Below the pieces are notes generated by a model. It saw nothing but the letters and a program-made list of their open reading frames with translations, was not told the DNA's origin and did no database searches. A stretch of 64,000 nucleotides of DNA from Candidatus Omnitrophota bacterium. GTDB lineage: Bacteria > Omnitrophota > Gorgyraeia > Gygaellales > Profunditerraquicolaceae. How positions within the stretch are numbered: the stretch's first letter is position 1; each line of letters opens with the position of its first letter. The DNA is taken from positions 6,405 to 70,404 of the forward strand of contig JBAZJY010000005.1 in the NCBI GenBank assembly GCA_041651115.1, read 5' to 3'. Positions 2,478 through 29,321 of the stretch are shown here, one piece after another. The translations under genes and the position numbers were made by a program.

Positions 2478-2487
2478 GGCCGATAAA

Positions 2488-4101: not shown

Positions 4102-4110
4102 AAACCGTAA

Positions 4111-6725: not shown

Positions 6726-6730
6726 ATCTA

Positions 6731-6795: not shown

Positions 6796-6796
6796 C

Positions 6797-8323: not shown

Positions 8324-8468
8324 GATTGACGCTTGTTTGTGCGGATGTTATAGTTAGATTGCGATTATAAATATATATATAAGGTAGGATGGTCGGGGGG
8401 GCCGGCCAAGCAAAGCCACGGATGATGTATACTAATTGTCTTTTTATGATTTTGTGGCGTGAAAGCTT

Positions 8469-8500
8469 GCAGCCGGCAGTATTCTGCCGGCTTTTTATTT
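8469..8500 (+). terminator. Rho-independent terminator-like hairpin just upstream of the first pilin gene
   Basis: Perfect 9-bp stem agccggcag / ctgccggct with loop tatt, followed by TTTTTATTT. It lies 10 nt before the pilin RBS (gggag), so it could also act as a 5'-UTR attenuator. Confidence 0.6.
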
Positions 8501-8510
8501 GGGAGTAAAA

Positions 8511-8834
8511 ATGATTTTTAAAAAAGCATTAAGCCAGAGTACCATTGAATATGTGTTGCTGGTGGCAATCACTATAATCGCGCTGGTGGTAGGAGCGAAT
8601 TTTGTTGATCAGATCAAGGGCGGTGCGTTTCAGGCGCATTTTGATGCGGCAAAACCCTTTGTAGCCGGGGAAACAGTTATCTATACCGCGCAGCCTGAGG
8701 CTCCAAGTAACACAGGCAGTACGGGAAATGTTCCGGCGGGCTGTGAATCCTGCCCCAATGATTGCCAATTGTGGCGGACCCAGGTGGGGCCGGATATGCA
8801 GACTTATTGGCGGTGCCCGCCGAACAGAGGATGA
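8511..8834 (+). CDS. Flp-type pilin paralog P1 with a 4-Cys C-terminal extension
   Basis: GGGAG RBS. Class-III leader MIFKKALSQSTIEY followed by the hydrophobic helix VLLVAITIIALVVGA. C-terminus GCESCPNDC...WRCPP. Confidence 0.6.
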   Translation: MIFKKALSQSTIEYVLLVAITIIALVVGANFVDQIKGGAFQAHFDAAKPFVAGETVIYTAQPEAPSNTGSTGNVPAGCESCPNDCQLWRTQVGPDMQTYWRCPPNRG

Positions 8835-8835
8835 G

Positions 8836-9306
8836 ATGATAGATCTGTTAAAGACGACAAGAAAACTAGCCCAGAGCCTTATTGAATACGTGATGATCTT
8901 TGCGATCGTCGCTGCGGCGCTGGGGGTAACTTATAAATATGTTTACCGTTCAATGAACGCGCGTTTGGATGATATACAGGATGTGGTAACTCCTGACCGG
9001 CCTGACGGCGGCAATTGGGATCTGCCCGACGTTGATCCGCCGGATGATCCTGAGCCGCCGAATACGGATTTAGAGAGTTGCCTTGCCGGTAATGACGCGG
9101 AATGTAACCAGCGTTTACAAGAAGGCATAGAATATTGTTGCGTGGAGTGTTGCGGCGCTGTTATGGCTGCTTGTAATGCTAATCCAAGCGACAGCGGTAT
9201 TTGTAACCCGGGTGCTCCCAGTAATGGTTGCCGCTATCCAGAGATTACCAATTGTCAGCAAAGCGGTGAGGCCCAGAGGGATATTTGCTGCGAGAATAAA
9301 TATTAA
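8836..9306 (+). CDS. Flp-type pilin paralog P2 with a 12-Cys C-terminal domain
   Basis: ATG 1 nt after the P1 stop. Leader MIDLLKTTRKLAQSLIEY plus VMIFAIVAAALGV. Pro/Asp-rich linker, then 12 Cys including CC pairs (YCCVECCG, DICCENKY). Confidence 0.6.
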   Translation: MIDLLKTTRKLAQSLIEYVMIFAIVAAALGVTYKYVYRSMNARLDDIQDVVTPDRPDGGNWDLPDVDPPDDPEPPNTDLESCLAGNDAECNQRLQEGIEYCCVECCGAVMAACNANPSDSGICNPGAPSNGCRYPEITNCQQSGEAQRDICCENKY

Positions 9307-9322
9307 CGCGGGTAAAGAAAAG

Positions 9323-9841
9323 ATGAAGAGACCTTACAGATTAGCCCAGAGTCTTATTGAATACGTGATGATCTTTGTGATCGTCGCTGCGGCAGTAGGG
9401 GTAACTTATAAATATATTTATCGCGCAATAAACGCGCGCTTAAAAAACACGCAGGATGAGCTGAACTATAGCCGTTCTGTTGAGGGAGTGGAAGCAGATG
9501 AGTATAATGACGGCAGCGGAGATAAAATTGAGACTTCTGTCGGGAATACTCGTCCGGGCTGTGAGTCTTGCCCGGATAATTGTCGGTCGCGGGTAGTAGC
9601 AACAGGCCGCGGCGGACCTAGTGCGGGTAATTGGGGGGTTGAGTGGTATTGCGCACCGGCTACAGGCGGAAACACAGGTGGAGATACAGGCGGAAACACA
9701 GGTGGAGATACAGGCGGAAACACAGGTGGAGATACCGGCGGTGACACAGGTGGGAATACCGGTGGTTGTCCTGCCGGCTCGCATCGGGTTTGTCATCCAT
9801 GCGGCCGCGGGGATACTTGTTGTAATTGCGTAGGCAATTAA
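9323..9841 (+). CDS. Flp-type pilin paralog P3 with Gly-rich repeats and a 10-Cys C-terminal domain
   Basis: Leader MKRPYRLAQSLIEY plus VMIFVIVAAAVGV. GCESCPDNC motif shared with P1. (GGNTGGDTGG)n repeat encoded by a 30-nt DNA tandem repeat. C-terminal CPAGSHRVCHPCGRGDTCCNC. Confidence 0.6.
   Translation: MKRPYRLAQSLIEYVMIFVIVAAAVGVTYKYIYRAINARLKNTQDELNYSRSVEGVEADEYNDGSGDKIETSVGNTRPGCESCPDNCRSRVVATGRGGPSAGNWGVEWYCAPATGGNTGGDTGGNTGGDTGGNTGGDTGGDTGGNTGGCPAGSHRVCHPCGRGDTCCNCVGN
9655..9765 (+). repeat. 30-nt tandem repeat (about 3.5 copies) inside pilin P3, encoding (GGNTGGDTGG)n
   Basis: acaggcggaaacacaggtggagat acaggcggaaacacaggtggagat acaggcggaaacacaggtggagataccggcggtgacacaggtgggaat. Confidence 0.8.
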
Positions 9842-9897
9842 TGTTGAGCGATCTTAATATGAACAAAAAACAGCAAAACGAAGGAGGTGAAAGAGAA

Positions 9898-10095
9898 ATG
9901 AGAAAGATGAGAAGGGAAGGACAGAGTATTCTTGAATACACCCTGCTTTTGGGTGCGATAATTGCAGTAATCGTAGCGGTTTTATTAGGTGGCCAAAGCA
10001 GCATGAAAGGTAAGGTAGAGGATACGTACGATGCGTTTGGTAATGCAATAAGCAATACGGCAAACGATGCGGATATCGGCGTGCTTACTCCGTAA
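9898..10095 (+). CDS. canonical short Flp pilin P4 (66 aa)
   Basis: GGAGGTG RBS. MRKMRREGQSILEY with the G-XXXX-EY Flp prepilin motif, then LLLGAIIAVIVAVLLGG. Typical Flp size. Confidence 0.75.
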   Translation: MRKMRREGQSILEYTLLLGAIIAVIVAVLLGGQSSMKGKVEDTYDAFGNAISNTANDADIGVLTP

Positions 10096-10114
10096 CGGAT
10101 AAGGAGGTAGTAAA

Positions 10115-10507
10115 ATGTTTCTAAGGAAGAAAGGACAATCTACTGCCGAATACGCGATTGTCATCGGCTTAGTGATTGCCGTGGCAGCAGGCATACTTCA
10201 GGTTGCCTTAAAAGGCGGCATCCGGCAGAAGAATAAACAGGCTACGGATTATTTGGTTGGTGAGAATGACGGCACAGACGGCGGTGCAGGCGGCTACGCG
10301 GCAATGAACGCCCAGATCGCATTAGGTGATCCTGCTGAACTCTACACCCAGGAAATGCGCGATACTACGGTTTTAGGCGGAGATGCCAACTACGTAGATG
10401 AAAGCGTAATGCTTAAAGGCGGAGCAGAGGAAAGACGGCAGAAGCAGGTTACCGAGACAACAGCTGTCAGCGTAGAGGCTATTGAAGGCGTAACAACGGG
10501 GAATTAA
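10115..10507 (+). CDS. Flp-type pilin paralog P5
   Basis: AAGGAGGT RBS. MFLRKKGQSTAEY plus AIVIGLVIAVAAGILQ. Confidence 0.7.
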   Translation: MFLRKKGQSTAEYAIVIGLVIAVAAGILQVALKGGIRQKNKQATDYLVGENDGTDGGAGGYAAMNAQIALGDPAELYTQEMRDTTVLGGDANYVDESVMLKGGAEERRQKQVTETTAVSVEAIEGVTTGN

Positions 10508-10548
10508 ACCGTACCGTAGATCAAAAAGTCATAGGGAGGTGAGCAATA

Positions 10549-11004
10549 ATGTTAAGGCGCAATAGTGGTCAATCAATAGTGGAGTACGCTATTCTTTTAG
10601 GCGTAATCATCGCGGCCTTATTGATCATGCAGGCATTCATCAAAAGAGGCTATCAGGGCGGCCTGAAAGATTCCGCGGACAAGATGGGCGAGCAGTTTTC
10701 CGCAGGAAATACCACAATCAAACAGGCAAGGACAATGGCAGAGGATCAAACTATCAGGGAAGCAGTGGCAACTGATGATGAAATAGCGCTGTTTACCGGC
10801 GACGTAGGCATAGCAGACGTACCGCGTACGCTTGACGCAGGCGCTTATTCTTATAGCGAGCGCAGCCCGGTGGAAATAGCTTCTACCACGCACGTAGTAA
10901 CTGACAGCGCTGATCAGGAAGCAACAAGAAAAGACGCATACGCTAATGTGCAAGTGACCAACTTTCAGTTTGTCAGTCCTGATAGTGATTTTGAAAGGCC
11001 GTAA
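10549..11004 (+). CDS. Flp-type pilin paralog P6
   Basis: GGGAGGTG RBS. MLRRNSGQSIVEY plus AILLGVIIAALLIMQ. Confidence 0.7.
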   Translation: MLRRNSGQSIVEYAILLGVIIAALLIMQAFIKRGYQGGLKDSADKMGEQFSAGNTTIKQARTMAEDQTIREAVATDDEIALFTGDVGIADVPRTLDAGAYSYSERSPVEIASTTHVVTDSADQEATRKDAYANVQVTNFQFVSPDSDFERP

Positions 11005-11017
11005 TAAGGTGGAAAAA

Positions 11018-11209
11018 ATGAAAAGACCCCTTAAGAGAGGACAGAGTATTCTTGAATACGCCCTGCTTTTGGGCGCGATAATCGCAGTGATCGTCGCAGC
11101 TTTACTGGGCAGAGGCGGTATCCAGAGTAAGGTGAGGAATAGTTATGATACTTTCGGAGATGCGATTGAGAGCACGACAACTGATCTAACAAGCAGTGTA
11201 TTTAGATAA
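11018..11209 (+). CDS. canonical short Flp pilin P7 (paralog of P4)
   Basis: AAGGTGG RBS. MKRPLKRGQSILEY plus ALLLGAIIAVIVAALLG. 64 aa. Confidence 0.75.
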   Translation: MKRPLKRGQSILEYALLLGAIIAVIVAALLGRGGIQSKVRNSYDTFGDAIESTTTDLTSSVFR

Positions 11210-11221
11210 GGAGGTAGTAAA

Positions 11222-11581
11222 ATGTTTCTAAGGAAGAAAGGACAATCTACTGCCGAATACGCGATTGTCATCGGCTTAGTGATTGCCGTGGCAGCAGGCA
11301 TACTTCAGGTTGCCTTAAAAGGCGGCATCCGGCAGAAGAATAAAAAAGCAGTGGATTTCTTAGTCGGCGCAGGCAATGACGTTGCTGCCTTTAGCAATGC
11401 CGCGTCCACAGACATCCAACTCTACACCCAGGAAATGCGCGATACTACGGTTTTAGGCGGAGATGCCAACTACGTAGATGAAAGCGTAATGCTTAAAGGC
11501 GGAGCAGAGGAAAGACGGCAGAAGCAGGTTACCGAGACAACAGCTGTCAGCGTAGAAACAATTGACGCTGCAGGACAATAA
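11222..11581 (+). CDS. Flp-type pilin paralog P8 (duplicate of P5)
   Basis: RBS and first ~40 aa identical to P5, and the C-terminal ~45 aa are near-identical. The middle segment has diverged. Confidence 0.7.
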   Translation: MFLRKKGQSTAEYAIVIGLVIAVAAGILQVALKGGIRQKNKKAVDFLVGAGNDVAAFSNAASTDIQLYTQEMRDTTVLGGDANYVDESVMLKGGAEERRQKQVTETTAVSVETIDAAGQ

Positions 11582-11603
11582 AAAATTAGGGAGGTGAGCA
11601 ATA

Positions 11604-12059
11604 ATGTTAAGGCGCAATAGTGGTCAATCAATAGTGGAGTACGCTATTCTTTTAGGCGTAATCATCGCGGCCTTATTGATCATGCAGGCATTCATCAAAA
11701 GAGGCTATCAGGGCGGCCTGAAAGATTCCGCGGACAAGATGGGCGAGCAATATTCTGCCGGCGGAACAACGATCCATAAAAGGAACGCGTTAGGCGCGGG
11801 AGGCCAGCAGATCGTAGAAGAAGTAGCGACAGTAGACGGGTCATCGCCGCTTGCTACTCTTAGCGGGCTTACGCCGGTAGGCACAATCGGCGGCGGAAAG
11901 AGCGCCTATTCTCTGAATACCAGGACAGGCGATACGATGACCTCAACCACAAAAGTGGATACTGACGATGCCCGGCACGAAGCGACAAGAGTGGCGGATT
12001 ACGGCGATGTGTCCAGTTCGGGAGGTAATTTCGCGCTGAGCGATAACGTTGATTTTTAA
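11604..12059 (+). CDS. Flp-type pilin paralog P9 (duplicate of P6)
   Basis: RBS and first ~55 aa identical to P6. The C-terminal half has diverged. Confidence 0.7.
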   Translation: MLRRNSGQSIVEYAILLGVIIAALLIMQAFIKRGYQGGLKDSADKMGEQYSAGGTTIHKRNALGAGGQQIVEEVATVDGSSPLATLSGLTPVGTIGGGKSAYSLNTRTGDTMTSTTKVDTDDARHEATRVADYGDVSSSGGNFALSDNVDF

Positions 12060-13585: not shown

Positions 13586-15082
13586 ATGAGATCTAAAAAG
13601 TCCCAGTCAATTTTTGATTACACACTTGCCTTTATTGCCTTGGCAGCGCTGGTAGTGGGCATTGTCCGCACCTGGGTCTGGTTCAACGCCAACTATGCCA
13701 AGCGCCAGATGGCTTATCAGACCAGTCGTATTGTTGCCGGCGGCCGCACCTGGCTTGAAGATACCCCAACGGCTTTTGATACTCCTTACGAGGTTCCTTA
13801 TGATATCGGCGCTACCCAGGAAAGCCCCAGCCGTATTTATCAACCCCTTCCTTTGAATAATAACTGGGTATTCGGCGGTCTGGCTTCAGGCAGCACAGGC
13901 GTTGCTGTTGTCGGCGGAGAAGACTGGGTCGGCGGTTTAGGCGCCTGCGGGGACCAATGCACCCAAGAGTGCATTGGTGACACAGCGTGTTATTCAGGAG
14001 TCGGAGATTTTAACACCCTTTGCAGCTGTTACCAGGCTTGTTTTTCAGAATGTAATTGTTTAAGGCAGATATCGCCCATGACCACTCTCTATGCGTCGCA
14101 AATAAGGGATATTTGCGGCCCGGATAACGATTGTAATGTTTCTACTTGCGTTTATTCCGATTGTGAAACTACTGCCGGCTGCGGTCTTGCCTGTAATATG
14201 CGCTGGAGCGCGCAGAGGATGCGGGATGCCGCAGAGCGCTGCGATGACTTTTGGGACGGGCCGTGCAACTGGTTTGGCGGCGGAAGGTCAGCCAGGCAGC
14301 TTAGAGCAGCGGCAAAAGAACTTATCAGGATGGCCTGGCAGCAGGAAATGGGAGCAAGGTTGTCAGGGCGTTCTTCCGTGCGTTTACAGCGTTGCTGTGA
14401 GATGCAGACTGATCTTTTAGCAGCGCAGTGCATGGAAACCGCGCAGAGTACAAATGAATGCGATGCCAATTGCCTGGAGGCCGCTATTGATGTTTTTTAT
14501 GCATGCGTAGAGCGGGGAGTTGATATGGGAATGGTTACCGTTCATCTTGACGGCCCTTGTTTTGTAGAAGCGGAAATCCATAATACTTTTTGCGCTGTTG
14601 CATGCATGACCGGGGAAAACGTACCTTGCGAGGACAAAGTAACGACGCACATTAACGGCTTAAATAGTCAGATAGATGCTTATGAACAGATTATTGAAGA
14701 TAATGAAGATCTTGTAGAAGAAATAGGGGATGTGCTTGCGCAGGCCGCAGCTGCTGCAAGCACAGCTTGTGCTTATAGCAATGATACTTCCTGTTATGCC
14801 GCGGCAAGAAACGATTACTGCATGAACAACTGTTGCCGGGGAGGGGCTTGGGGCAGGGCTTGCGATGAGCCTGCGGAAAACTGCGATAATTGCGCGGGAG
14901 ATGAGTCTTGTCCTGCGTGCGGGCTTTCCCAGCTTAGCGCCAATGTCCAGGCTCAAAATGAAAACTTTGAAGAGGCGATATTAGCGATGCAGGAGGCGAT
15001 CGCGGCTTTGCCGGCCTGCTGCGATGAAGCCGTTGCGATCGTGCAGGACAGGTGCATCAGTAATATAATCAATAACCTATAA
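13586..15082 (+). CDS. Flp/TadE-like prepilin N-terminus fused to a ~400-aa domain with about 40 cysteines
   Basis: MRSKKSQSIFDY plus TLAFIALAALVVGIV, then a domain dense in C-x-x-x-C and CC motifs (GACGDQCTQECIGDTACY, CSCYQACFSECNC, CMNNCCRGG, ENCDNCAGDESCPACG). Confidence 0.6.
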   Translation: MRSKKSQSIFDYTLAFIALAALVVGIVRTWVWFNANYAKRQMAYQTSRIVAGGRTWLEDTPTAFDTPYEVPYDIGATQESPSRIYQPLPLNNNWVFGGLASGSTGVAVVGGEDWVGGLGACGDQCTQECIGDTACYSGVGDFNTLCSCYQACFSECNCLRQISPMTTLYASQIRDICGPDNDCNVSTCVYSDCETTAGCGLACNMRWSAQRMRDAAERCDDFWDGPCNWFGGGRSARQLRAAAKELIRMAWQQEMGARLSGRSSVRLQRCCEMQTDLLAAQCMETAQSTNECDANCLEAAIDVFYACVERGVDMGMVTVHLDGPCFVEAEIHNTFCAVACMTGENVPCEDKVTTHINGLNSQIDAYEQIIEDNEDLVEEIGDVLAQAAAAASTACAYSNDTSCYAAARNDYCMNNCCRGGAWGRACDEPAENCDNCAGDESCPACGLSQLSANVQAQNENFEEAILAMQEAIAALPACCDEAVAIVQDRCISNIINNL

Positions 15083-19373: not shown

Positions 19374-19376
19374 TAT

Positions 19377-19473
19377 AGGTTAAGGTTAGGGTTATGAAGC
19401 CGGTATGGTAGTTAGGTTAGGGTTAAGTGTCAATAACCTAACCTTAACCACTAAACCATACCGGTATCCTTAC
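19377..19473. repeat. palindromic hairpin repeat, copy 2
   Basis: ggttaaggttagggttatgaagccggtatggtagttaggttagggttaag, loop, then aacctaaccttaaccactaaaccataccggtatccttaccctaacc. Sits between tadC and the lipoprotein gene. Confidence 0.8.
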
Positions 19474-19487
19474 CCTAACCATACACT

Positions 19488-20024
19488 ATGAGATACAAAC
19501 TATTTTTTCAAAAGTCATATAGTCTACTAGTACTGCTGCTTTGCCTTGCCGGGTGTACTTCAGAATGGACCCGCTACGTTAATAAAGAACATAAGCTATC
19601 CATACTCCTGCCTGCTTCGTGGGAAAAAGAAGAAGGGGCTTTTAAGACCGTGATTATTGCCTTAGCGCCCCTTGATACAACCAAGCCCAAGCTTTCCCGT
19701 GTCCGGACAAATATAAACGTTATTGCTTCCGAATTGCCTACACCCGTTGATGTAAGCACGCTTTTTGAATTGAATAAGACCGAGCTAGGCACTAAGCTGG
19801 CGAGGATGGATGAATTCCTTGAAGGTGATATATATGCGGGAACTCTGCGCGGTAAATGGCTGTCTTTTGAGGGGTTACTGCGCGAGGCGAGAGTGAAAAT
19901 AATCAGCGGCATCTGGGTAAAGGACAGGCGCGTTTATAGCGTTACTTGCACTGCCCGTACAGATGAGTTCGCGAAATACGATCCGTTATTCCAGAAGGTA
20001 CTGCGCAGCCTGCGCGTCAAATAA
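19488..20024 (+). CDS. lipoprotein, possibly PsbP/DUF1795-like (family assignment tentative)
   Basis: Lipobox LLCLAGC. ILLPASWEKEEG...NVIASELP...AGTLRGKWLSFEG...RVYSVTCT. Confidence 0.55.
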   Translation: MRYKLFFQKSYSLLVLLLCLAGCTSEWTRYVNKEHKLSILLPASWEKEEGAFKTVIIALAPLDTTKPKLSRVRTNINVIASELPTPVDVSTLFELNKTELGTKLARMDEFLEGDIYAGTLRGKWLSFEGLLREARVKIISGIWVKDRRVYSVTCTARTDEFAKYDPLFQKVLRSLRVK

Positions 20025-20070: not shown

Positions 20071-20601
20071 ATGAAGCCTCGATTCTTTCCAAAATTATGT
20101 GTTTTACTGCTGTTGGTGCCTTTTCTATGCAGCTGTGAATTCGGCTGGAAACAGTATATTAACGAAGATAATGATTTTTCTATATTATTGCCTGCTTCAT
20201 GGGAAAAACAAGAAGATGTGTTTGATGCGGCATTGATTGTCTTGGCTCCCGTAAAAGGCAAAAATAAAAACCCGCCGGTCAGGGCGAATATGAATATCAT
20301 CGTCGCTGACTTGCCGGCAAGGGCGGACCTGGATATAGTTTTTGATTTTAACAGAACCGAGCTTTCCAGCAAACTGGCAAGAATAGACGATATCATTGCA
20401 GGCGATATCTATGCCGGTCCATTACTCGGCAGGCAGGTTTCATTTGCGGGCCTGCTTAGCGGATTCCAAGTGAAGATAATCAGCGCCAACTGGGTAAAAG
20501 GCAGGCGCGTTTATACCGTTACCTGCACCTCCGCCCTAAATGAATTCCCCAAATACGAGAAAACATTCAAAAAAATGTTCCGCACCCTGCGTATTAAGTA
20601 G
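20071..20601 (+). CDS. lipoprotein, tandem paralog of 19488-20024
   Basis: Lipobox FLCSC. ILLPASWEKQED...NIIVADLP...AGPLLGRQVSFAG...RVYTVTCT, collinear with the upstream paralog. Confidence 0.55.
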   Translation: MKPRFFPKLCVLLLLVPFLCSCEFGWKQYINEDNDFSILLPASWEKQEDVFDAALIVLAPVKGKNKNPPVRANMNIIVADLPARADLDIVFDFNRTELSSKLARIDDIIAGDIYAGPLLGRQVSFAGLLSGFQVKIISANWVKGRRVYTVTCTSALNEFPKYEKTFKKMFRTLRIK

Positions 20602-20633
20602 TTCTTCCAAGAGTAGTTAAATCTAAGTTGTAA

Positions 20634-21260
20634 TCGTTAGGTTTAGTAATTAGGTTATGGTAAGGAAGCCGGTATGGTAGTTAGGTTATGGTTAAGTATA
20701 AAACCCGGATCGTTTTTTGAATTTAGTCCAAGACATTGACAGCTTATATAATTGCCTGCCCGAGATATCATATGAAGTAATAAGCTCATCGCATAGTTGC
20801 ATATTTATGGCATAGGAATATATATCTTTACACTGATTTAGACTCACTACCGTTTCATTACATTCTCCCATAGCATCATCAAGGTATTTTTGAAACCCCA
20901 TTTTTTGGTGTCTCTTGGCATAGCCTTCAGCTATCAATCTTGGGATAGCCTTACATGATCTCGCCAGTTGGTCTTTTAAATCATATTTTTCGTTATCAGG
21001 TAATCTCGGGATAATTTTTGTCATTACCTCTATGGCAGCTTTATAAGTGTTTTGGTACACATTCAAATCACAAAAACTTCTAATTGGTTTTTTAATTTCC
21101 ATAATTTGGTCCTATTTCTTCAGCTAGACTTAGAATACGATCGCCTTCTGTAATAATAGACGAATAAACAGAATAAATCTAACTCAAAAACATGTCATTT
21201 TAACCTAACCTTAACCCTTTAAACTATACTGGTTTCTTTACCATAACCTTAAACATAACC
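20634..21260. mobile_element. IR-flanked cassette: arms of the hairpin-repeat family enclosing a four-helix-bundle gene
   Basis: Left arm 20634-20696 (..ggttatggtaaggaagccggtatggtagttaggttatggttaag). Right arm 21199-21260 (aacctaaccttaacc..aaactatactgg..ccataaccttaaacataacc) is its reverse complement. In copies 1, 2 and 5 the arms abut across a short loop. Here they are ~500 bp apart with a gene between. Confidence 0.5.
20692..21102 (-). CDS. four-helix-bundle protein (23S rRNA intervening-sequence / Avd-like family)
   Basis: SFCDLNVYQNTYKAAIEVMTKIIPRLPDNEKYDLKDQLARSCKAIPRLIAEGYAKRHQKMGFQKYLDDAMGECNETVVSL matches the conserved F-x-DL-x-VWQ / IAEG signature of this family. Only convincing minus-strand gene in the window. 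Confidence 0.7.
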   Translation of the reverse strand: MEIKKPIRSFCDLNVYQNTYKAAIEVMTKIIPRLPDNEKYDLKDQLARSCKAIPRLIAEGYAKRHQKMGFQKYLDDAMGECNETVVSLNQCKDIYSYAINMQLCDELITSYDISGRQLYKLSMSWTKFKKRSGFYT

Positions 21261-21281
21261 TGGGGAGTGTTATCAAGTACT

Positions 21282-21355
21282 TCAGTTTGGACATTAAAAA
21301 TAAACGTTTTTTAAATGTCCAATCTATTTTTAATCGTTAAATAATGTCCAAACTG
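21282..21355 (+). promoter_or_regulatory. three AATGTCCAA(T/A)CT boxes (one inverted, two direct) upstream of giant gene 1
   Basis: cagtttggacatt at 21283-21295 is the reverse complement of aatgtccaaactg at 21343-21355. A direct aaatgtccaatct sits at 21313-21325. The direct copies are 30 bp apart, as at 29131/29161. Confidence 0.45.
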
Positions 21356-21363
21356 GAATAAAT

Positions 21364-21437
21364 TGGTTAAGTCAGCTTATAACCTAACCTTAACCGCTAA
21401 ACTATACCGGTATCCTTGCCCTAACCTTAACCATAAC
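21364..21437. repeat. hairpin-repeat family, partial copy (short left arm ttggttaagtca plus full right arm)
   Basis: ttggttaagtcagcttataacctaaccttaaccgctaaactataccggtatccttgccctaaccttaaccataacc. Confidence 0.6.
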
Positions 21438-21561
21438 CAGGCTTATATACATAACTGAAGAAAGCGTTATCAATATCCGTATCTTTATACCTTGATAGAT
21501 ATATGCTTTGTGCTATACTTTTTGTGCTAATTATTTAAATATAAAAGTAATATAAATATAT

Positions 21562-24500
21562 ATGATGAATCCAACCTCATTACTTGAAAGAAGAAAAATG
21601 ACAAAGGCCGGATTTTTTACTTTCGGGTTTCTTAGAAAACAAAAATGGCTTAGCGTGATCCTGGCGCTGGCCTTTTTGCTTAATACTATTTCACCTGCTT
21701 TTGCGCGCGAGGGAAATTCCGGCAGACGGACTTCTCTTGAAATGTACGGCCTCGGCGCATTAGCCGGCTCCGCTTTAGGCGCCTCTATCCTTATCGGTTA
21801 TGAAACCGGCCAATGGTGGGGCGTTGCCGCTGCCGCAGCCGCAAATATGGCAAGCGACCTTACCGGCCTTGTGATGTATTACTATTTTTATGAGAGCTAC
21901 GGGGAAACCGCAACAGTATTCGGAAAAGAACTTAAATTCGGCAATGTAGAAATTAGCAAAGGAATGCTTTATTCAATGTATGCCGGAACGATCACCGGCG
22001 CGCTTGTTGGTATTGTGGGAGGCCTGGCCTCTGGTGCTTCCAGCGGCGCAAGTTCAAGCCTTGAAAGCGGCGCAAGTTCAGGCATTGAGAGTGCTGCTGC
22101 TAGCGCCGGGGAAGGTGCTGTGTCAGGCGCGGCTACCGGTGCTGCGTCAGGCGCGACATCTGGTGCTGTAGCAGGCGCAGCCAATAGCGTGATTACAGCT
22201 ATTGTGAATGCCGCAAAAGCCCTCTGGCAAGCTATCGTGAATGCAGCCAAAGCCATTTGGACAGCGCTTAAAAACGCTTGGCAAGCTATCGTGAAATTTT
22301 TTGATCGTCCTCTTAAGGAAATATTAAAGTCAGTCGGAAAAGCCCTTTGGGAGAACGTATTAAAGCCGATTTTAGAGCCTATCTGGAAGAATCTCATTAA
22401 GCCTATCTGGAACTTCATTACGCACCCCATTAGGACAATAAAGGATTTTTTTGCTAGAATCGCGAAAACTGCGGCAGACAACAATATTAATTGGTTAAGA
22501 GCAGCAATAAGAGTTGTGTATAAGCTTGATAAGCTTAAACCCGGCAGCGTTGCCAATCCTTATATCCGTTACGGAGCAGAACGCTCTTTTGGAGCTGCGT
22601 TTGCGCATTTAGTAGGCGACCTGGTTATTAATACGGCAAAGCTGTTTTTCAGAGAAACAATAAAGCAGAACCTTGAGAAAGGATTTGAGATCACGATTGG
22701 TAAAGGTAAGAATAAGAAAACGCTCATTGCAATTGACGAGCAAGATGAAACTATCGCCGAGATCGCTGCCGATATCGCAACCATATATTTTTCAGCATGT
22801 ATCACTCCGACAGTAAGGATACTTTTGGGCAACTTAATGCACGTGTATGGAGGCAAGGGCAAGTTTGTTCTTGATAACCAGGGCGGATACTTAAGTAAGG
22901 AAGGGGAAGGCTTTATTGATGAGGGCGTAACCTATGAAATTGACGCAGTAGAGATGAATTCTCAGGAAATCAACAGGCGCCTGGAAGCCAAGCAAATTAA
23001 GGGTGACGCAATGGTGAAAGTTACCCGTGACGGAAAAACCGAAGAGATAAAGGCTGAAGCGGTAGCCAATATGTTAAACGGCAAGAATTACACCGTTACC
23101 CTGCAAGCCGACGTAACTTTAAACGGCGAAACCGTGAAAGCCGGCACAAAGATAGCCGTTAATGCGACAGAGTTTACTAACCTTTGGCAGCAGGAAGGCG
23201 TGATCAACAAATCCGGTTCCGTAGATGTCACTAATACAGATGGAGTAACGCAGCAGATCAGCGCGGAGGCGGCATACGCAGGCGCAGTTAATATTTTGAG
23301 CGCCAGTTATACTGCCGGGATTACCATAGCCGCCCACGACTATTTCCAGATGCGGGAAAGTGAAACGATCAAAGAAGGCAGCACGCCTGTGCGCGTTACT
23401 TCTGCCGACAAAAAAAATCAGGTTGATACTACTGCCAAAGAATTAGACGGCGTTTTTAACGATACCTATGTGCAGCTGGAAATGGCCCGGCGGCTGGAAA
23501 ATAAAATCATTACTTTTCAAGACGCTGCCACCGGCGAACTGCATGAAATGAAAATGAGCGAGGTTGCCCGGGAAATAGCCCCGAATAAAGACGGCACAGT
23601 AGGCGTACAAAACGATAACGGCACTTATAGCGTAGTAATAAACGGCAAGGAAGTTATAGTTGACGCTGCCACATCTGCTCAACTGCACAGCAATCTTGTT
23701 GCCTACGCTACTATCATGGCAAGCAGTGCCCATCAGACCGCGCTCGCCTTAACCGGTGGACTCTTAAACGACATTCACGGCAATCCCGTAAGCAGTAAAC
23801 CGCTTAAGGCAGGCTTGCAGACCATGCGCAGCATCGGCCTGCATCCTCTTGTCGGCGCGGGAGTAAAAATACTTGCTTTGAAATTGATGAAGTACCGCAC
23901 GCATTACGGCGATGAAAGCGGCCGCGTTGCGGAAAACGCGAAAAAAATGGCAATTGCTGATTTCTTCGGCAATCTTGCTTCGTCAGCAGTGGCCAATTCC
24001 TCGCGTTTCAATACTTGGTATGCCGGCACAGATGAAAATCCATATGTGCAAAGGGGCGACTCCGGTGAATATTTAGGCAGGGAATATGCCCAGCGAATGG
24101 GCAAAGAATTTGTTACACAAACCGCCCTATTGGCCAATGAATTAGCTTGGGCAAATTATTGCAAGAAAAAAGACATTACTCCCGATGCGTTAGATGAAGT
24201 AAGGCATCTGGCAGCAGGTTCGCTTGTTAGCGGCTTGGTAGATGCAATTTACCGCCGCGATCCCGGCACCGTAGAGAAAAAAGACCAGGTGCTGGTAGAA
24301 ACCAGCGGTATGGCATCTGGCAACGGAGAGCTTATGTTTGTAGACCGCGACAGCCTTACCGAGAGCACATATGACAAAGATACCTTTTTATTCAAGGTTA
24401 ACGGCGAGGACCTAAGAGGTAAAATCAGAACACTTGATAATAAAGAAAAAGTATTCCTTAATGAAGATGACGTTCTCTTTGTCGGCGCCAAGGCGCCCGA

Positions 24501-27500
24501 CGACAACAAGAAGTGGTCTGCGGTAACATGGCAGACGAATAACGCTTCTGTAAAAACAGGCGGGCAGGTATCTTATAATGTTACATACGACGTGTCTTCC
24601 CGGCTTAATGATCCTCAATTCCAGAGCAGGCAGAATCTGACCGCTGGCAAGTTTGTAAAGAGCGTGGCGCAGGATTTCAATAACCATTTTATACAGGCGG
24701 CCGCGCGCAGCAGCCTGTATTTATCTCCGATGTTTACGCCCGGCACAGGCCCGGCAGGATTTTTGGCGCAGCAGCAGATGCAGGACCAGTGGATCCAGCA
24801 CATCCAAGGCATGGCGCAAGGCACTGGCCCGGGAATGCTGATGGCCAACCGCCTTGGCGGCAACATGCGCTATTATGCCAATATGAACGTTGCCGATTCG
24901 CTCGGCGCGGCAATCACCAATCGCTTTATGCGCCAGGAGCTGCGTTCTTATGCTACCTTCATGACTACGCAAGAAAAACTCCAGTATTTGCAGGTTACAG
25001 AAGAGAAAAATCTGAAACGGAAAGTAGAATTATTGGGTAGCCTGCGGGCTTTTAATAAAGAATATGGCGGTGACATTAATAAATTGAATGCAGACATAGA
25101 GCAGGCGAATATAGATCTGGCAACAGCGGAACAGGCCGGGCGCGTTGATGAGGTCAATACCATGCGCAAAGCGCTGGAGACGATGTACGGCATGGTAATA
25201 GCTGCAGATGAAGTTTTAAAGAAAGCTTACAGCCTGCAAATCGTCCGCGCTAACGAAGTTTATAGCCTTCCCGCAGAGGCGCAGTCAAGAATCTTTAATG
25301 ATTTAATGCCGGAAGTAATAGACGGCCTGCAAGCGGACGTAGATGCCTCTGCTTATAAGATTGGGGCCATGGAAAGGGCTAAGGGTTCGCTGGGCATACT
25401 CTCCAGCGTGCCTATCCTCGGCGCAATGATCCAGTCAGCCGTGCTTTCTAACCTGGCGACATCAACCGGCCAGGCGCAAGGCATAAATGATTTTATTATC
25501 GGCGGTATAGTTGATTATAATGTTGACCGCACTTTTGATATCTATGCGCCGATGAGCGGCTATACGGCAGGGGCGCTGGAAAGCACGGTAGATAACAGCG
25601 CGAAAACAACGCAGATGAGTGAAAAAGATAAACAGGCTTTCCGTTCGCTTTTAAAAGATCCCGAGCTCAGGAAGCGCAGCGAGCTTAGAAGCAATTATTC
25701 AATGTCGGTTGCCGGGGTTTATCAGGGCAGTGAAAGCTACGCCAATACTCCGCTTTTGAATGCAAGCGGCATCTCGCAGGAGGTAAGGTCAACAAGAATG
25801 GAGCTTAGGGAAGCCGAGACCGGCGGTAAGGCGCTGGTAGTAACAGATTCTACAAAAATAGATGCCATTAACGTGATTAAAGAAATGAGAAAAAATAACC
25901 CGAATGTTGAGGCATTTACTTATATACCGGAAGATAAGGATAAAACACCGGAGCAGGTTGAAACTGCGCTATATGAATTAAAGACCGGCAGGGTGTTGTT
26001 CTCCGATTATGGCCTGACCAGTCGCACCACAGTTGATCAGTTCGGCCGCGCCGTAGAAACCAGGCATTATGCCCCCGACTTTGTTTTTAGCGATATCGGG
26101 AGTGAATGGCAAACCGGCATAGAGCAGGATGTGATCACCCGGCATTATTACGGGCCGTTTGGCCACGCGGTTTCCATTACTACCGACTATACGCAGATAG
26201 GGGTTCCTGATGCGGATAACTGGCCGGGAGCAAAAGATTGGACTATCGGCATGGGCAAGGTATGGAATGATCTGGCCGCGGAATTCAAGGTTGTCGGCGT
26301 AACGCCCGAGCAGCTTGCCGGAAAATTAGGCATTGAACTCACTGGCCAGGAAAGCGCAGAAGAGCTGCAGGTTAAATTCACCAGCTTTCTGCAGGAAAAG
26401 CTCAAAGAAGGGCCTGATGCGATTGAGAAAATTGATGCAGATATTAAAACTTTTGCCGGTAGCTTAAATGTTGAGCCGAAGAATATCGGCGGCGATTTCA
26501 GCAATTATATTCCTAAGATCAAAAAATATGTTTATGCTACAGATCCCAAGACAGGAGAATACCGTACTGATAAATCCGGCCGCTTAATCCCTATCGGCAG
26601 CGTGCTTAACGCAAAGGCGGCGCAAACTCAGCGTTTCCTTGCTGCAGCGCAAAATTTAAGGGAGGGCAAACCTATAGAATATTCATACGCAGGTAAGGAG
26701 GATTATCAGGTAACCGCCCTCAAGGTTCCTCAAGAAGAAATTGATAAGAGCAGGGCTCTTGTGACCCAGGACATGCTTGAAGAATTTGCCGGCTTTGCAA
26801 CAGACGTATACGGTAAAAAGGTCAGGGCAAAGGATATCAACATGAATACGCCCTGGGGCGGCATCCTTGCGTATATGGCGGTTAACCCGCAGCCGGATGG
26901 CCGTAAATGGTCAGAGCTGACAACTGATGAAAAGCAGGACATCTTTGCGGGTGTAACTGCATGGAGGCTTCTAACCTACGGATTATACGCAGAGGATCCG
27001 AACGTAAAGCAAACCATTCCTAATAATCAAAGCACTTTGACCCTTTTCTTAGGCAGCGGCGCTGATCAGATCCGCGGCGCCAACTATTTATACGTGCCTG
27101 CGATCGCCGGGCAGAAAATGGAACCTTTGAAAACTACCCTAACCGGGCCCGAAGGCTATTATCAGCCGGTTTCTGTCGGCCCGAATTACAGCTACGATAT
27201 CAGTATTTATTCTACCGGAGAGGGCAAGACCCCGTATTCCGGGCCAAGCCACAGGGCCAGCGTCAGCGATATTAATTCCGGCCCCGCGCTCAATGCCGCT
27301 GCGCAGTACACGCTTCCGACAGATGCCGTTGAGCGGCAATTGCAGCAATTGGTTTATAACTTTGCAGCTACCGATTTTAAAGGCGCTGACCAGCGCGCAG
27401 AATTGATCGGCTTTATGAAAAATGAACTGGGTATAGACGAAGAAGATGCTATTGCAAAAGTAGATAGGTTAAATTCAAGAGAATATGGTAGAGAATTTTT

Positions 27501-29109
27501 GGAAGGCATACAGGAAAAAGTAGATGAATCCAGGATCAACCTTGATAAGATCACGCAGGCGCCGCTTACGCTTACTGCTACTACTGCGCAAACAGAAACT
27601 CCAAAACTAAAAACTCAGGCTCTTCCCAATATGTCTTTTCCGGATTTAGATAGAACTAAATGGGCAATGCAAAGGCTTGAGGGCCAGGATTTAGAAGTAT
27701 ATACCGCGGTGCAGAATAAACAACAGGAATTAAATAGCAATTTAAACCGCGACCTGTCTAATGTCAAACAAATGCAGTTCTTTGAATATAAGGATATTGG
27801 CGGCAGGACACTGATGCTTCCGACATGGGGCATGAGTATGGGTTCTGTTTTGCAGACGCGGGATGATGCTATGGCAGCTGCCATAAATCAGGAAGAATTA
27901 AGGTTCAGCAAGCTCATGGCCTATAATTATGACAGGCAAGGCATAGAAACTTCCATTGACAAAGGCTACAAGGAAGCGTTGGTTAGCGGCAATGATTTCC
28001 TTACTAACATGTTCAAAGAAACCAAGACCCTTCCCATAAACGGCCATAGCTTAGTAATGGAGCCTAATAATAATGGCATGTTGGGAGCTTTTTACGATCG
28101 TTCAACTACGGTTTATGTGCCGGGAGAATATGGCAGCTATGACGCCGCACTTCCCGAGGGTACCTACAAGTATGACGGAAGGGGTTCTGCGGATGTTATT
28201 CAGAGAAGCCAATTAAGGCTAAAAAATTCAGAAGAAGCAAAATTGGTCCCGTTAGACGGCAGGTCTACTTCTACGAACACGGCCGCGGCGCCGGTAATTA
28301 ATAATCCGCCGGTACAAACAGCGCCTGCGCCGGTTACAGGCCCTGACCTGCAGTCGCAGGAAGCAGAGCTTAAACCGCTTAAGCCTATCGTAAAACCTAT
28401 ACCAAACAATATTGATCAATCAATCCCGCTGTCCCGGGCATATCCGCAGCAGCAACCTGTAAGTGTTAATACAACCGTGCCTGAATTGACCGACGAGCCG
28501 GCAGTTGAAACAATAAAACAGGAAACTGTAACCGTACCCCAATATGACCTAAAAGATTACATCCAGCTTGAAACAGCTGTTTTGAATATGGCCCCTACCC
28601 TAGGCGTAGGCGACATCGGCTTCTTATCCCAATGCGCTCAATATGGAACAATCGATAGCGATAATATCAATAAGATCGTGCCTTTGTTTGCAGAAGCAAG
28701 AAAAAATGGCGCGATTGATGATATGGGGTTAGTATACCTAGAGCAGTTTATGTCTATTAAAAAGATACCAATAGTACCAGAGGGCTCTGTTCGAGAAGGT
28801 GACGTTACAGCACTTGCTTTGGCAGAAGAAGAAGCTCTCAAGCAAGGAAATGTAGTAGAGATCCCTCCTATCATAACTTCGGAAAATTCCGAGGCATTTT
28901 TTACCACAATAGGCAATCAAGATTTTGTCAATAGATTAGGGAGGAATAACGAAGCTATATATGGATTCTACTCGGCTTTGAATAAACTATCGGATAGCGG
29001 TAAGGTATCTCCAGACAATCTGTTGAAAGTCACGGATTATTTACGCGATCATCCAGACGAGATTGAGTATTCCCGCAGAACCGGTGAGCTAAGAGGTTTT
29101 GAGAAATAA
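21562..29109 (+). CDS. giant secreted/surface protein (2,515 aa), function unknown
   Basis: Uninterrupted ORF. N-terminal signal-like segment WLSVILALAFLLNTISPAFA. Gly/Ala/Ser-rich low-complexity block. Trp-containing amphipathic 11-mer repeats (AIVNAAKALWQAIVNAAKAIWTALKNAWQAIV...KPIWKNLIKPIWNF). Pro-rich segment near 28280-28400. No recognised catalytic motif. Confidence 0.7.
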   Translation: MMNPTSLLERRKMTKAGFFTFGFLRKQKWLSVILALAFLLNTISPAFAREGNSGRRTSLEMYGLGALAGSALGASILIGYETGQWWGVAAAAAANMASDLTGLVMYYYFYESYGETATVFGKELKFGNVEISKGMLYSMYAGTITGALVGIVGGLASGASSGASSSLESGASSGIESAAASAGEGAVSGAATGAASGATSGAVAGAANSVITAIVNAAKALWQAIVNAAKAIWTALKNAWQAIVKFFDRPLKEILKSVGKALWENVLKPILEPIWKNLIKPIWNFITHPIRTIKDFFARIAKTAADNNINWLRAAIRVVYKLDKLKPGSVANPYIRYGAERSFGAAFAHLVGDLVINTAKLFFRETIKQNLEKGFEITIGKGKNKKTLIAIDEQDETIAEIAADIATIYFSACITPTVRILLGNLMHVYGGKGKFVLDNQGGYLSKEGEGFIDEGVTYEIDAVEMNSQEINRRLEAKQIKGDAMVKVTRDGKTEEIKAEAVANMLNGKNYTVTLQADVTLNGETVKAGTKIAVNATEFTNLWQQEGVINKSGSVDVTNTDGVTQQISAEAAYAGAVNILSASYTAGITIAAHDYFQMRESETIKEGSTPVRVTSADKKNQVDTTAKELDGVFNDTYVQLEMARRLENKIITFQDAATGELHEMKMSEVAREIAPNKDGTVGVQNDNGTYSVVINGKEVIVDAATSAQLHSNLVAYATIMASSAHQTALALTGGLLNDIHGNPVSSKPLKAGLQTMRSIGLHPLVGAGVKILALKLMKYRTHYGDESGRVAENAKKMAIADFFGNLASSAVANSSRFNTWYAGTDENPYVQRGDSGEYLGREYAQRMGKEFVTQTALLANELAWANYCKKKDITPDALDEVRHLAAGSLVSGLVDAIYRRDPGTVEKKDQVLVETSGMASGNGELMFVDRDSLTESTYDKDTFLFKVNGEDLRGKIRTLDNKEKVFLNEDDVLFVGAKAPDDNKKWSAVTWQTNNASVKTGGQVSYNVTYDVSSRLNDPQFQSRQNLTAGKFVKSVAQDFNNHFIQAAARSSLYLSPMFTPGTGPAGFLAQQQMQDQWIQHIQGMAQGTGPGMLMANRLGGNMRYYANMNVADSLGAAITNRFMRQELRSYATFMTTQEKLQYLQVTEEKNLKRKVELLGSLRAFNKEYGGDINKLNADIEQANIDLATAEQAGRVDEVNTMRKALETMYGMVIAADEVLKKAYSLQIVRANEVYSLPAEAQSRIFNDLMPEVIDGLQADVDASAYKIGAMERAKGSLGILSSVPILGAMIQSAVLSNLATSTGQAQGINDFIIGGIVDYNVDRTFDIYAPMSGYTAGALESTVDNSAKTTQMSEKDKQAFRSLLKDPELRKRSELRSNYSMSVAGVYQGSESYANTPLLNASGISQEVRSTRMELREAETGGKALVVTDSTKIDAINVIKEMRKNNPNVEAFTYIPEDKDKTPEQVETALYELKTGRVLFSDYGLTSRTTVDQFGRAVETRHYAPDFVFSDIGSEWQTGIEQDVITRHYYGPFGHAVSITTDYTQIGVPDADNWPGAKDWTIGMGKVWNDLAAEFKVVGVTPEQLAGKLGIELTGQESAEELQVKFTSFLQEKLKEGPDAIEKIDADIKTFAGSLNVEPKNIGGDFSNYIPKIKKYVYATDPKTGEYRTDKSGRLIPIGSVLNAKAAQTQRFLAAAQNLREGKPIEYSYAGKEDYQVTALKVPQEEIDKSRALVTQDMLEEFAGFATDVYGKKVRAKDINMNTPWGGILAYMAVNPQPDGRKWSELTTDEKQDIFAGVTAWRLLTYGLYAEDPNVKQTIPNNQSTLTLFLGSGADQIRGANYLYVPAIAGQKMEPLKTTLTGPEGYYQPVSVGPNYSYDISIYSTGEGKTPYSGPSHRASVSDINSGPALNAAAQYTLPTDAVERQLQQLVYNFAATDFKGADQRAELIGFMKNELGIDEEDAIAKVDRLNSREYGREFLEGIQEKVDESRINLDKITQAPLTLTATTAQTETPKLKTQALPNMSFPDLDRTKWAMQRLEGQDLEVYTAVQNKQQELNSNLNRDLSNVKQMQFFEYKDIGGRTLMLPTWGMSMGSVLQTRDDAMAAAINQEELRFSKLMAYNYDRQGIETSIDKGYKEALVSGNDFLTNMFKETKTLPINGHSLVMEPNNNGMLGAFYDRSTTVYVPGEYGSYDAALPEGTYKYDGRGSADVIQRSQLRLKNSEEAKLVPLDGRSTSTNTAAAPVINNPPVQTAPAPVTGPDLQSQEAELKPLKPIVKPIPNNIDQSIPLSRAYPQQQPVSVNTTVPELTDEPAVETIKQETVTVPQYDLKDYIQLETAVLNMAPTLGVGDIGFLSQCAQYGTIDSDNINKIVPLFAEARKNGAIDDMGLVYLEQFMSIKKIPIVPEGSVREGDVTALALAEEEALKQGNVVEIPPIITSENSEAFFTTIGNQDFVNRLGRNNEAIYGFYSALNKLSDSGKVSPDNLLKVTDYLRDHPDEIEYSRRTGELRGFEK

Positions 29110-29130: not shown

Positions 29131-29172
29131 AATGTCCAATCTGAAATAAAATCGCTTATAAATGTCCAATCT
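29131..29172 (+). promoter_or_regulatory. two direct AATGTCCAATCT boxes, 30 bp apart, between the giant genes
   Basis: aatgtccaatctg at 29131 and aatgtccaatcta at 29161, followed by ttggttaagtca and hairpin repeat copy 5. Confidence 0.45.
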
Positions 29173-29198: not shown

Positions 29199-29321
29199 GG
29201 TTAAGTCATTAGGTTAAGGTTAAGAGGCCAGTATGGTAAATAGGTTATGGTTAAGTGCCAAATAACCTAACCTTAACCCCTAAACCATACCGGCTTCCTG
29301 ACCCTAACCTTAACCTAATTA
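29199..29321. repeat. palindromic hairpin repeat, copy 5
   Basis: ggttaagtcattaggttaaggttaagaggccagtatggtaaataggttatggttaag, loop, then aacctaaccttaacccctaaaccataccggcttcctgaccctaaccttaacc. Confidence 0.8.

Follow-up and report, generated by a model that had tools for sequence, protein, structure and literature searches.

The segment 20634-21263 of the DNA analysed here, a 64,000-nucleotide stretch from an Omnitrophota bacterium that we call the window, is well supported as a single cassette in which a gene for a four-helix-bundle (FHB) protein is bracketed by the two arms of a hairpin. It is built like the intervening sequences (IVSs) of 23S rRNA and lies between protein-coding genes. Comparison of sequences indicates that gene and arms have been conserved together, as a single unit, in more than ten bacterial phyla; units of this kind were previously known only as inserts in 23S rRNA genes. 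An earlier note on this DNA had taken the structure for a foldback element that captured an FHB gene as cargo; this does not hold, because the arm-gene unit recurs across those phyla, protein similarity follows the type of arm, and remnants of the open reading frame (ORF) are found in the loops of copies that carry no gene. Our preferred reading of the whole, an IVS-type cassette outside rRNA that works through an RNA stem, has in our estimate a probability of about 0.55.

The cassette and its foldback relatives in the window

The features of the locus are collected in Table 1. The protein matches PF05635 (E 1.8e-17, 63.9 bits, cut-off 33.8) and TIGR02436 (E 2.3e-15, 56.8 bits, cut-off 24), and an NCBI entry with 100% identity carries the name 'four helix bundle protein [Candidatus Omnitrophota bacterium]'. 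AF2 predicts four helices (pLDDT 90.5), and the best PDB matches of this model in Foldseek are 2GSC, which is XCC0516 (TMt 0.88), and 2RLD, which is BT_0352 and is labelled 'S23 ribosomal protein family' (0.84), so that the family named in the earlier note is the right one. The substitution pattern (pN 0.07-0.2, with synonymous sites saturated even at 85% amino-acid identity) indicates that the protein is functional and under strong purifying selection, and the cores of the arms are conserved in sequence despite the saturated synonymous sites of the gene. Across the 19.5 kb around the cassette, all called genes except this one lie on the opposite strand; the other minus-strand candidate, ORF 280-615, has no Pfam match, and the remaining minus-strand ORFs of the window overlap plus-strand genes, which bears out its description as the only minus-strand gene. 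A phage route was rejected, since the gene has no match in PADLOC or PHROG and no relative was found in viral contigs.

Table 1. Positions of the cassette, its parts and the related foldbacks in the window
Feature	Position	Strand	Description
ORF-less foldback copy 1	6610-6722	+	intact
ORF-less foldback copy 2	19376-19484	+	occupies the entire gap from the T2SSF stop (19373) to the next ATG (19488)
Left arm	20634-20697	+	G-rich on +; C-rich downstream arm in gene sense; family D6
FHB protein gene	20692-21102	-	136 aa; 23S rRNA-IVS protein / 'S23p' type; PF05635, TIGR02436
Leader, about 95-97 nt	21103-21197	-	between upstream arm and ATG; absent in close relatives
Right arm	21198-21263	+	C-rich on +; G-rich upstream arm in gene sense; family D2
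Spacer	21264-21364		three AATGTCCAA(A/T)CT motifs: 21284 (minus strand), 21314, 21343
Second ORF-less foldback, remnant	21365-21441	+	GGTTAAG (21365-21371), loop TCAGCTTA, right-type arm 21377-21441
ORF-less foldback copy 5	29205-29318	+	intact

The three intact ORF-less foldbacks (copies 1, 2 and 5) are imperfect palindromes of about 100 nt, in which a G-rich left arm and a C-rich right arm of about 50 nt each abut, as had been claimed, here across loops of 7-9 nt at all three copies. Their predicted folds are stable on either strand (-50 to -62 kcal/mol, z -5.7 to -9.2) and contain a conserved predicted internal loop. At copy 1, repeat sequence continues upstream past the outer end of the left arm, and the TAA of the host ORF 6261-6608 falls within this extension. 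The family motif CCTAACCTTAACC occurs 23 times in the window with at most 2 mismatches, against 1.1 expected occurrences. Each arm is an array of repeats of about 6 nt (GGTTAR) around a conserved core, GAAGCCGGTATGG / CCATACCGGCTTC, and this periodicity is reflected in a lag-6 self-match of 0.389, compared with 0.267 in shuffles.

The flanks of the FHB gene align as inverted copies of this family. Left arms are 73-78% identical to one another (MAFFT), the left arm of the cassette reaching 73-77% against the others in this alignment and 76-84% in ungapped comparison; right arms are 72-78% identical among themselves, with 72-74% for the right arm of the cassette against the others, whereas left and right arms share only about 60% (MAFFT). 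The arm profile described below also matches at both ends of the cassette, at 20653-20688 (E 4e-5) and at 21212-21248 (E 1e-3). As the earlier note had it, the arms that abut elsewhere are here 500 nt apart, and the MFE fold of 20625-21270 (646 nt) joins them in a stem on both strands, so that complementary ends enclose the insert of the window cassette. The TAA stop of the gene lies within the inner end of the left arm, as CTTAACC in gene sense. The spacer beyond the right arm probably lies outside the cassette. It is followed by the remnant of the second foldback, in which the right-type arm is complete (78% identity to the right arms of copies 2 and 5) and the left arm is down to its inner 7 nt.

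A check for target-site duplications, proposed in the earlier note for the ends of the element, revealed none at 20634/21263, nor is one visible around copies 1, 2 and 5. An 8-nt direct repeat, GGTTAAGT, is present at 20690-20697 and 21365-21372, but it is weak evidence for anything because it is a repeat unit of the family. The window copies are about 25% divergent from one another and thus give no sign of recent activity. Rfam holds no family for the arms or the foldbacks, which gave chance matches to miRNA precursors only, and the Rfam scan of the window returned a tRNA-Glu only and no rRNA; the genes that flank the cassette are protein-coding.

Conservation of arms and gene across bacterial phyla

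A scan of species-representative genomes, among which the genome of the window itself is not included, yielded 80 loci with 62-83%-identical proteins in more than ten phyla. They belong to Omnitrophota, Planctomycetota (Scalindua), Nitrospirota, Desulfobacterota, Gammaproteobacteria and CPR/Patescibacteria, and further to WOR-3, Bacteroidota, Elusimicrobiota, Cloacimonadota and Spirochaetia. An inverted repeat scoring at least 20 flanks the gene in 51% of the 76 testable loci, against 2.3% of shifted pseudo-genes in the same loci, and an nhmmer arm profile, seeded solely with the nine arms of the window and then iterated, matches 60 of the 80 foreign loci. The layout is stereotyped: the G-form arm typically ends 8-25 nt upstream of the ATG (2-25 nt in the relatives set against the window copy with its leader), the C-form arm begins at -3 to +4 relative to the stop, and the inner arm-arm distance is 405-420 nt. 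The arms come in two dialects, one with GGTTAGG repeats and the core GCCGGTATGG, the other with GGTAACG repeats and the core GCCCGTATCG, and both are found inside Omnitrophota, Desulfobacterota, CPR, Planctomycetota and Nitrospirota. The nearest protein neighbour has the same dialect in 42 of 45 cases and comes from the same phylum in 25 of 45; it is well supported by these comparisons that protein similarity tracks arm dialect and that arms and gene have been inherited together across many phyla.

All widely spaced arm pairs with a checked interior enclose an FHB gene, no other type of gene having been found inside, and a few short arm pairs (61-112 nt) hold no ORF. Homologs are present on very many contigs of about 1 kb, in the manner of a repeat, and tandem and nested copies were found in loci L002, L097, L037, L065 and L140. 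The same insertions are common to different species in L009/L025/L078 and in L053/L068/L069.

ORF-less foldbacks accompany the gene in many FHB loci and account for most of the 49 metagenomic matches to the arm pattern. They align with gene-bearing copies up to a few nucleotides before the ATG, and the alignment resumes about 10-25 nt before the stop; in locus L097, the loop of the ORF-less copy reads AAAAACAGACCAACTACTTAA and the end of the neighbouring gene is AAAAACAGACTAACTACTTAG. The conserved core is retained in them as well. Since the last codons of the ORF are kept in the loops, these foldbacks are best read, from the alignments, as internal-deletion derivatives of the gene-bearing element, and the shared arms, the dialects and the loop remnants together suggest that the gene-bearing form is the full-length one, from which the short foldbacks were derived, and not the reverse.

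At one site, which is filled in one genome and empty in another, ORF-less foldbacks also appear to behave like insertions. In L139, a syntenic locus from the same sample (T2SSF proteins 68-69% identical), the copy-2 junction consists of a stop codon, 2 nt and an ATG, and the foldback of about 108 nt that fills this junction in the window is missing there, as is any arm in the 6.4 kb of the locus. The synteny of L139 stops right after the PsbP-like gene, so that it is informative for copy 2 only; for the site of the cassette itself no orthologous locus was found, the best neighbour homolog being only 46% identical. Because the foldback is asymmetric, its orientation can be called: 15 of the 17 callable ORF-less copies of the window dialect have the same orientation (type I) in host sense (p 0.002), and gene-bearing copies occur in both arm configurations (type I and type II).

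More distant members of the protein family have the same layout with other repeats. Seven distant PF05635 paralogs in the fetched loci have inverted arrays of short repeats on both sides (GCGTACA, ATGGACR, TAGTGAA, TGGAATA and others), and in a second subfamily with 2580 database matches, all eight genes examined lie between inverted heptamer arrays whose unit varies from gene to gene, for instance (GTCACAA)n/(TTGTGAC)n and (GCGTATT)n/(AATACGC)n. Inverted-repeat scores in this subfamily are 15-40, whereas 17 other genes of these loci score 7-16. Complete plasmid sequences of cultured cyanobacteria (Nostoc and Leptolyngbya isolates) include three 'four helix bundle protein' genes with the same bracketed build, which rules out an artefact of MAG assembly. 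Repeat units across the FHB subfamilies are 6-8 nt long, and the two subfamily searches found thousands of members each. A flanking inverted repeat scoring at least 17 is present at 67% of 97 distinct FHB genes, compared with 4.3% of the 608 ORFs of other kinds (Mann-Whitney p 5e-36); by the score used, one third of the 97 genes have no significant flanking repeat.

One homolog, on plasmid AZO_p2 of Azospirillum lipoferum 4B (L149), is a bona fide IVS: the 23S rRNA gene that surrounds it matches Rfam LSU with 2448 bits. Here the ATG forms the end of the arm, whose pairing partner lies about 25 nt beyond the stop codon and is followed by heptamer-like repeats, and this IVS contributes complementary arms of its own beyond the rRNA helix. 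For the IVS of Coxiella, a terminal stem of 28 bp is described, together with GACAGAT heptamers ahead of the S23p ATG and excision by RNase III at the stem, and Xcc0516 is reported to be a homopentamer (PMC4990558). Earlier papers placed FHB genes between cas genes and in rRNA insertions of CPR bacteria, without the anatomy of the arms; in the literature on IVSs, Avd and cas neighbourhoods, which was covered incompletely so that an earlier description is possible, we found no account of conserved repeat arms flanking FHB genes that lie outside rRNA.

Genomic context, proposed mechanism and rival explanations

FHB genes are co-oriented with their upstream neighbour in 75 of 78 loci, against a baseline of 81% for other adjacent ORFs (p 1e-4), with a median gap of 73 nt to that neighbour, and the arm is so close to the ATG that a promoter would not fit between them. 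Close relatives are found within operons for fatty acids, sugar nucleotides and signalling. The window copy is atypical in that it is antisense and, alone among the copies, has the extra leader. It belongs to the rare class in which both neighbours are on the opposite strand (2 of 70), and it sits at an operon boundary, between the end of a Tad-pilus operon at 20601 and a strong promoter-like site for the gene of the 2515-aa protein at 21492-21519. Because the gene is antisense to its neighbours, transcriptional read-through cannot drive it. The leader may supply it with a promoter and a Shine-Dalgarno sequence of its own: an AGGA precedes the ATG by about 8 nt, and a sigma-70-like candidate, ATGACA-17-TATTCT at 21198-21170, scores 9/12, which is not above chance (3 sites vs 5.1 expected); a transcript from this candidate promoter would be without the upstream arm. 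Neither the leader nor the spacer has a homolog in any fetched locus. A simple inversion as the origin of the antisense orientation was rejected, because the configuration of the arms relative to the gene equals that of the nearest relatives, L082 and L087.

Building on the observed anatomy, conservation and orientation bias, the deletion relationship and the one filled and empty site, we propose that a typical copy, which has no promoter of its own and is co-oriented within a host operon, would be transcribed through read-through. The arms would pair as an imperfect stem of about 45 bp around the ribosome-binding site, start and stop, and by analogy with rRNA IVSs this stem could be a substrate of RNase III, by which the insert would be cut from the host transcript and its cost to the host lowered. 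The encoded protein would bind the repeats of its own arms, as we infer from arm conservation beyond the needs of pairing, from the subfamily-specific units, from the oligomeric barrels that the solved relatives form, and from the binding of RNA stem-loops by the barrel of Avd, the sole relative to have been characterised. New copies would arise through DNA-level insertion at gene junctions, by putative machinery.

The stems themselves bear on the choice between RNA and DNA. Mismatches in 40 stems comprise 52 GU and UG against 37 AC and CA, a weak strand asymmetry, and the bases at about 15% of the stem positions do not pair. The two variable core positions vary independently of each other within one dialect and covary between dialects only, a pattern as compatible with terminal repeats at the DNA level as with an RNA stem. 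In view of the weak asymmetry and the lack of covariation within dialects, we keep as possible, though doubtful, a mobile element that depends on its protein at the DNA level. The FHB protein would then recognise the arm repeats, as DNA or as RNA hairpins, and drive the copying of gene-bearing and ORF-less copies in the manner of RAYT and REPINs, or it would recruit a host reverse transcriptase (RT), as Avd does, to copy the stem-bracketed RNA into DNA, and RNA processing would be secondary. Such an element would suit repeat units that are specific to subfamilies and co-vary with the protein, a core that is conserved across phyla beyond saturated synonymous sites and is retained in ORF-less derivatives, the filled and empty copy-2 site, the tandem and nested copies, the very many 1-kb contigs, the presence of both dialects inside single phyla, and the role of Avd as an RNA-binding RT cofactor. 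However, no catalytic activity is known for a four-helix bundle, neither an RT nor a transposase or integrase was found in the window (ORFs 600-11004 and genes at 11-29 kb), no target-site duplication and no viral carriers were found, and the 25% divergence in the window together with the insertions shared by species implies slow turnover.

The remaining explanations separate the gene from its arms or assign it to another system. A host-specific, MITE-like foldback that picked up an unrelated gene once, in this genome, would account for one gene-bearing copy among five in the window, with arms that match those of the ORF-less copies; it is already contradicted by the same arms around homologous genes in the other phyla, by the FHB genes that alone fill the checked wide arm pairs and by the ORF remnants in ORF-less loops, and we regard it as highly improbable. 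It is also unlikely, if less so, that the bare FHB gene is mobile and homes into the loops of existing hairpins, such as rRNA helices and foldbacks, the arms being its target. rRNA IVSs do sit in helix loops, the window insert takes the place of the loop of a family-typical foldback, and the leader and antisense orientation indicate an interior that varies independently of the arms, but the arms co-vary with the protein subfamily, the inner ends of the arms incorporate the Shine-Dalgarno region and the start and stop codons, the Azospirillum IVS has arms of its own, and the 3' ends of the ORF in ORF-less loops fit a deletion, not a virgin target. That the gene is a remnant or accessory (Avd) gene of a diversity-generating retroelement (DGR) is barely conceivable. 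The earlier note had pointed to Avd, and a distant relationship of PF05635 to Avd stands; beyond this the link does not carry, as PF22296 (bAvd-like) is not matched at E <= 0.01 and the Avd structures of the DGR ribonucleoprotein are weak matches (TM 0.64-0.77, 10% identity), well behind 2GSC and 2RLD. The absence of a visible RT or template repeat, noted before, agrees with our scan: no RVT domain was found in ORFs 600-11004 and genes at 11-29 kb, which already contradicts a DGR at the locus; one giant ORF makes up the rest of the window. Only one long direct repeat is near-identical, a gene duplication of 1.1 kb whose mismatches are of mixed type and not adenine-specific, and apart from it the long direct repeats are the foldback family itself; none of about 110 related genes was seen beside an RT in gene tables, and the lack of PADLOC and PHROG matches points the same way. 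As a separate observation, PF22296 gives weak matches in some distant PF05635 paralogs.

Relation to known systems and significance

The IVS-type cassette that we favour is built like an ORF-bearing 23S rRNA IVS but lies outside the location that defines that family. The rRNA IVSs of Leptospira, Coxiella, Brucella, Xanthomonas and Azospirillum likewise have a PF05635 ORF of about 120-135 aa between complementary termini and short tandem repeats just before the ATG (GACAGAT in Coxiella, heptamer-like in L149), and they share the orientation of the ORF in the sense of the host transcript, the existence of ORF-less versions and a sporadic distribution. In contrast, the window copy is not in rRNA and is antisense to protein-coding neighbours, the arms of the cassette are about 60 nt long with a conserved core that is not part of the repeats, compared with 14-28 nt in IVSs, and its ORF-less copies are dispersed in intercistronic junctions. 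Excision by RNase III has been shown for rRNA IVSs only.

With REPINs and RAYTs, the cassette has in common a single-copy gene flanked by inverted repeats, gene-less hairpin doublets and the co-variation of repeat and protein, but its protein is a four-helix bundle (PF05635) and not a Y1/HUH transposase, its ORF-less copies look like internal deletions, and the divergence between copies is high. It resembles a MITE with its autonomous parent in that short non-coding derivatives keep both termini and that a filled and an empty site exist, but unlike MITEs and elements with terminal inverted repeats it has no transposase and no target-site duplication, and its arms are arrays of tandem repeats. 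The Avd of DGRs belongs to the same fold superfamily; its barrel contacts RNA stem-loops, and a duplex of the 3' end of avd with the spacer (avd:Sp) brackets the template repeat, TR (bioRxiv 10.1101/2023.10.23.563531). The cassette differs from it in having no RT, no TR/VR pair and no bAvd-like match, and its nearest structures are the stand-alone XCC0516 and BT_0352. An integron attC cassette was rejected, because the foldbacks have the G-form first (GGTTAGG...CCTAACC) on either strand, opposite to RYYYAAC...GTTRRRY, and because no integrase was found in ORFs 600-11004 and the genes at 11-29 kb. The RNase III hairpins of phage T7 early mRNA and the mRNA-stabilising REP/BIME hairpins are also long and imperfect, have internal loops and lie between cistrons; we know of no dedicated protein gene and no repeat arrays across phyla that go with them.

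To our knowledge, PF05635/TIGR02436 is a very large family that has no known function outside the Avd of DGRs, and we are aware that the origin and mobility of ORF-bearing rRNA IVSs have been a standing question since the early 1990s. We tentatively suggest, as an idea that goes well beyond the present locus, that PF05635 FHB proteins may be the specificity factors of a widespread and undescribed class of hairpin-bracketed cassettes, each subfamily recognising its own inverted tandem-repeat arms. Such cassettes would insert at gene junctions and in rRNA helices, the ORF-less foldbacks left behind would rely on the protein in trans, the classical 23S IVSs would be the subset that landed in rRNA, and heptamer arrays, for example the short tandemly repeated repetitive sequences (STRRs) of cyanobacteria, could be footprints of this activity. 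If every member were a cassette with subfamily-specific arms, the protein would gain a testable ligand in its own arms, the IVSs would gain a source population outside rRNA, and a candidate origin would be at hand for many of the intergenic palindromes and heptamer arrays that lack an explanation in uncultured phyla and in cyanobacteria. For annotation, such foldbacks and small genes in operons would be insertions and not members of the operon.

The STRRs are a lead only. They are tandem heptamers in the intergenic DNA of Nostoc-type cyanobacteria, and no link between STRRs and FHB genes was found in the literature searched. The FHB genes on the Nostoc plasmids lie between heptamer arrays in a similar way, and their array units, AGCAGGG and GAGCAGR, presumably differ from the three classical STRR units.

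Clustered and tandem cassette copies

Three four-helix-bundle (FHB) cassettes, in which inverted repeat arms flank the FHB gene, lie within 5 kb in L140 (1058-5145), a locus of the second FHB subfamily, where they alternate with sugar-nucleotide biosynthesis genes and all have the same orientation, with an arm repeat unit that differs in each. Two copies are contained in a few kb in each of the fetched loci L141, L037, L065, L080, and L020, and a complete foldback, the imperfect palindrome of about 100 nt, immediately follows the cassette in L002. In L097 (2045-2800, minus strand), an ORF-less foldback, a gene-bearing cassette, and a second ORF-less foldback follow each other in tandem, joined by two similar 19-nt linkers (gactattcactggtttata and aactattcacaggtatata), and this arrangement suggests that the units arose through unequal recombination that duplicated the unit. 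According to the protein match lists, close homologs of both FHB subfamilies are mostly located on contigs of about 0.5-3 kb, which is the pattern expected of a repeated element that breaks short-read assemblies.

An FHB gene was also found in Azospirillum lipoferum 4B, where plasmid AZO_p2 (L149) carries a 133-aa FHB ORF within the helix-45 region of a 23S rRNA gene (record 14347-14748). This insert is a textbook intervening sequence (IVS), and its ORF is unannotated and missing from the gene table of the plasmid.

Direct repeat and recurrent motif near the foldbacks

In the window, copies of the 8-nt direct repeat GGTTAAGT at 20690-20697 and 21365-21372 enclose 667 nt that contain the FHB gene together with the leader, right arm, and spacer. 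The pair could indicate that DNA was inserted at the edge of the loop in an older foldback, composed of the left arm and the arm at 21380-21441. GGTTAAGT is also simply a repeat unit of the foldback family.

The motif (TATA)AATGTCCAATCT recurs in three intergenic regions of the window, each preceding a large gene (starts at 6797, 21562, and ~29458), with every site at most ~100 nt from a foldback and with identical 17-mers at 6771 and 29156. It was absent from all fetched loci, and it may be an operator or a 5'-UTR motif of the window's gene cluster.

Neighbouring genes and repeats

Selected features of the window
Feature	Position	Remark
tRNA-Glu (CTC)	178-254	start of window
Giant gene	21562-29109	2515 aa
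Giant gene	~29458 to window end	at least 11,798 aa; cut by window end
(TATA)AATGTCCAATCT sites	6771-6787, 21284-21295 (minus strand), 21312-21326, 21343-21354, 29131-29142, 29156-29172

Adjoining the tRNA gene, a minus-strand ORF of 111 aa (280-615) is without a Pfam match and is probably not a gene. Both giant genes sit after a Tad/Flp pilus operon (RcpC, secretin, CpaF-like ATPase, two T2SSF), and no Pfam match is on record for the protein encoded by the smaller one.

A 12-nt tandem repeat (ACAGGCGGAAAC/ACAGGTGGAGAT, ~9 copies, 9637-9780) lies inside the ORF at 9176-9841. Two small genes form a tandem duplication of ~1.1 kb within 9918-12059, whose copies (10115-11004 and 11222-12059) share 94-98% identity with a mixed mismatch spectrum. 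The PsbP-like lipoprotein genes at 19488-20024 and 20071-20601 are also tandem paralogs, 73% identical over their final 132 nt, whereas the syntenic relative L139 carries a single copy.
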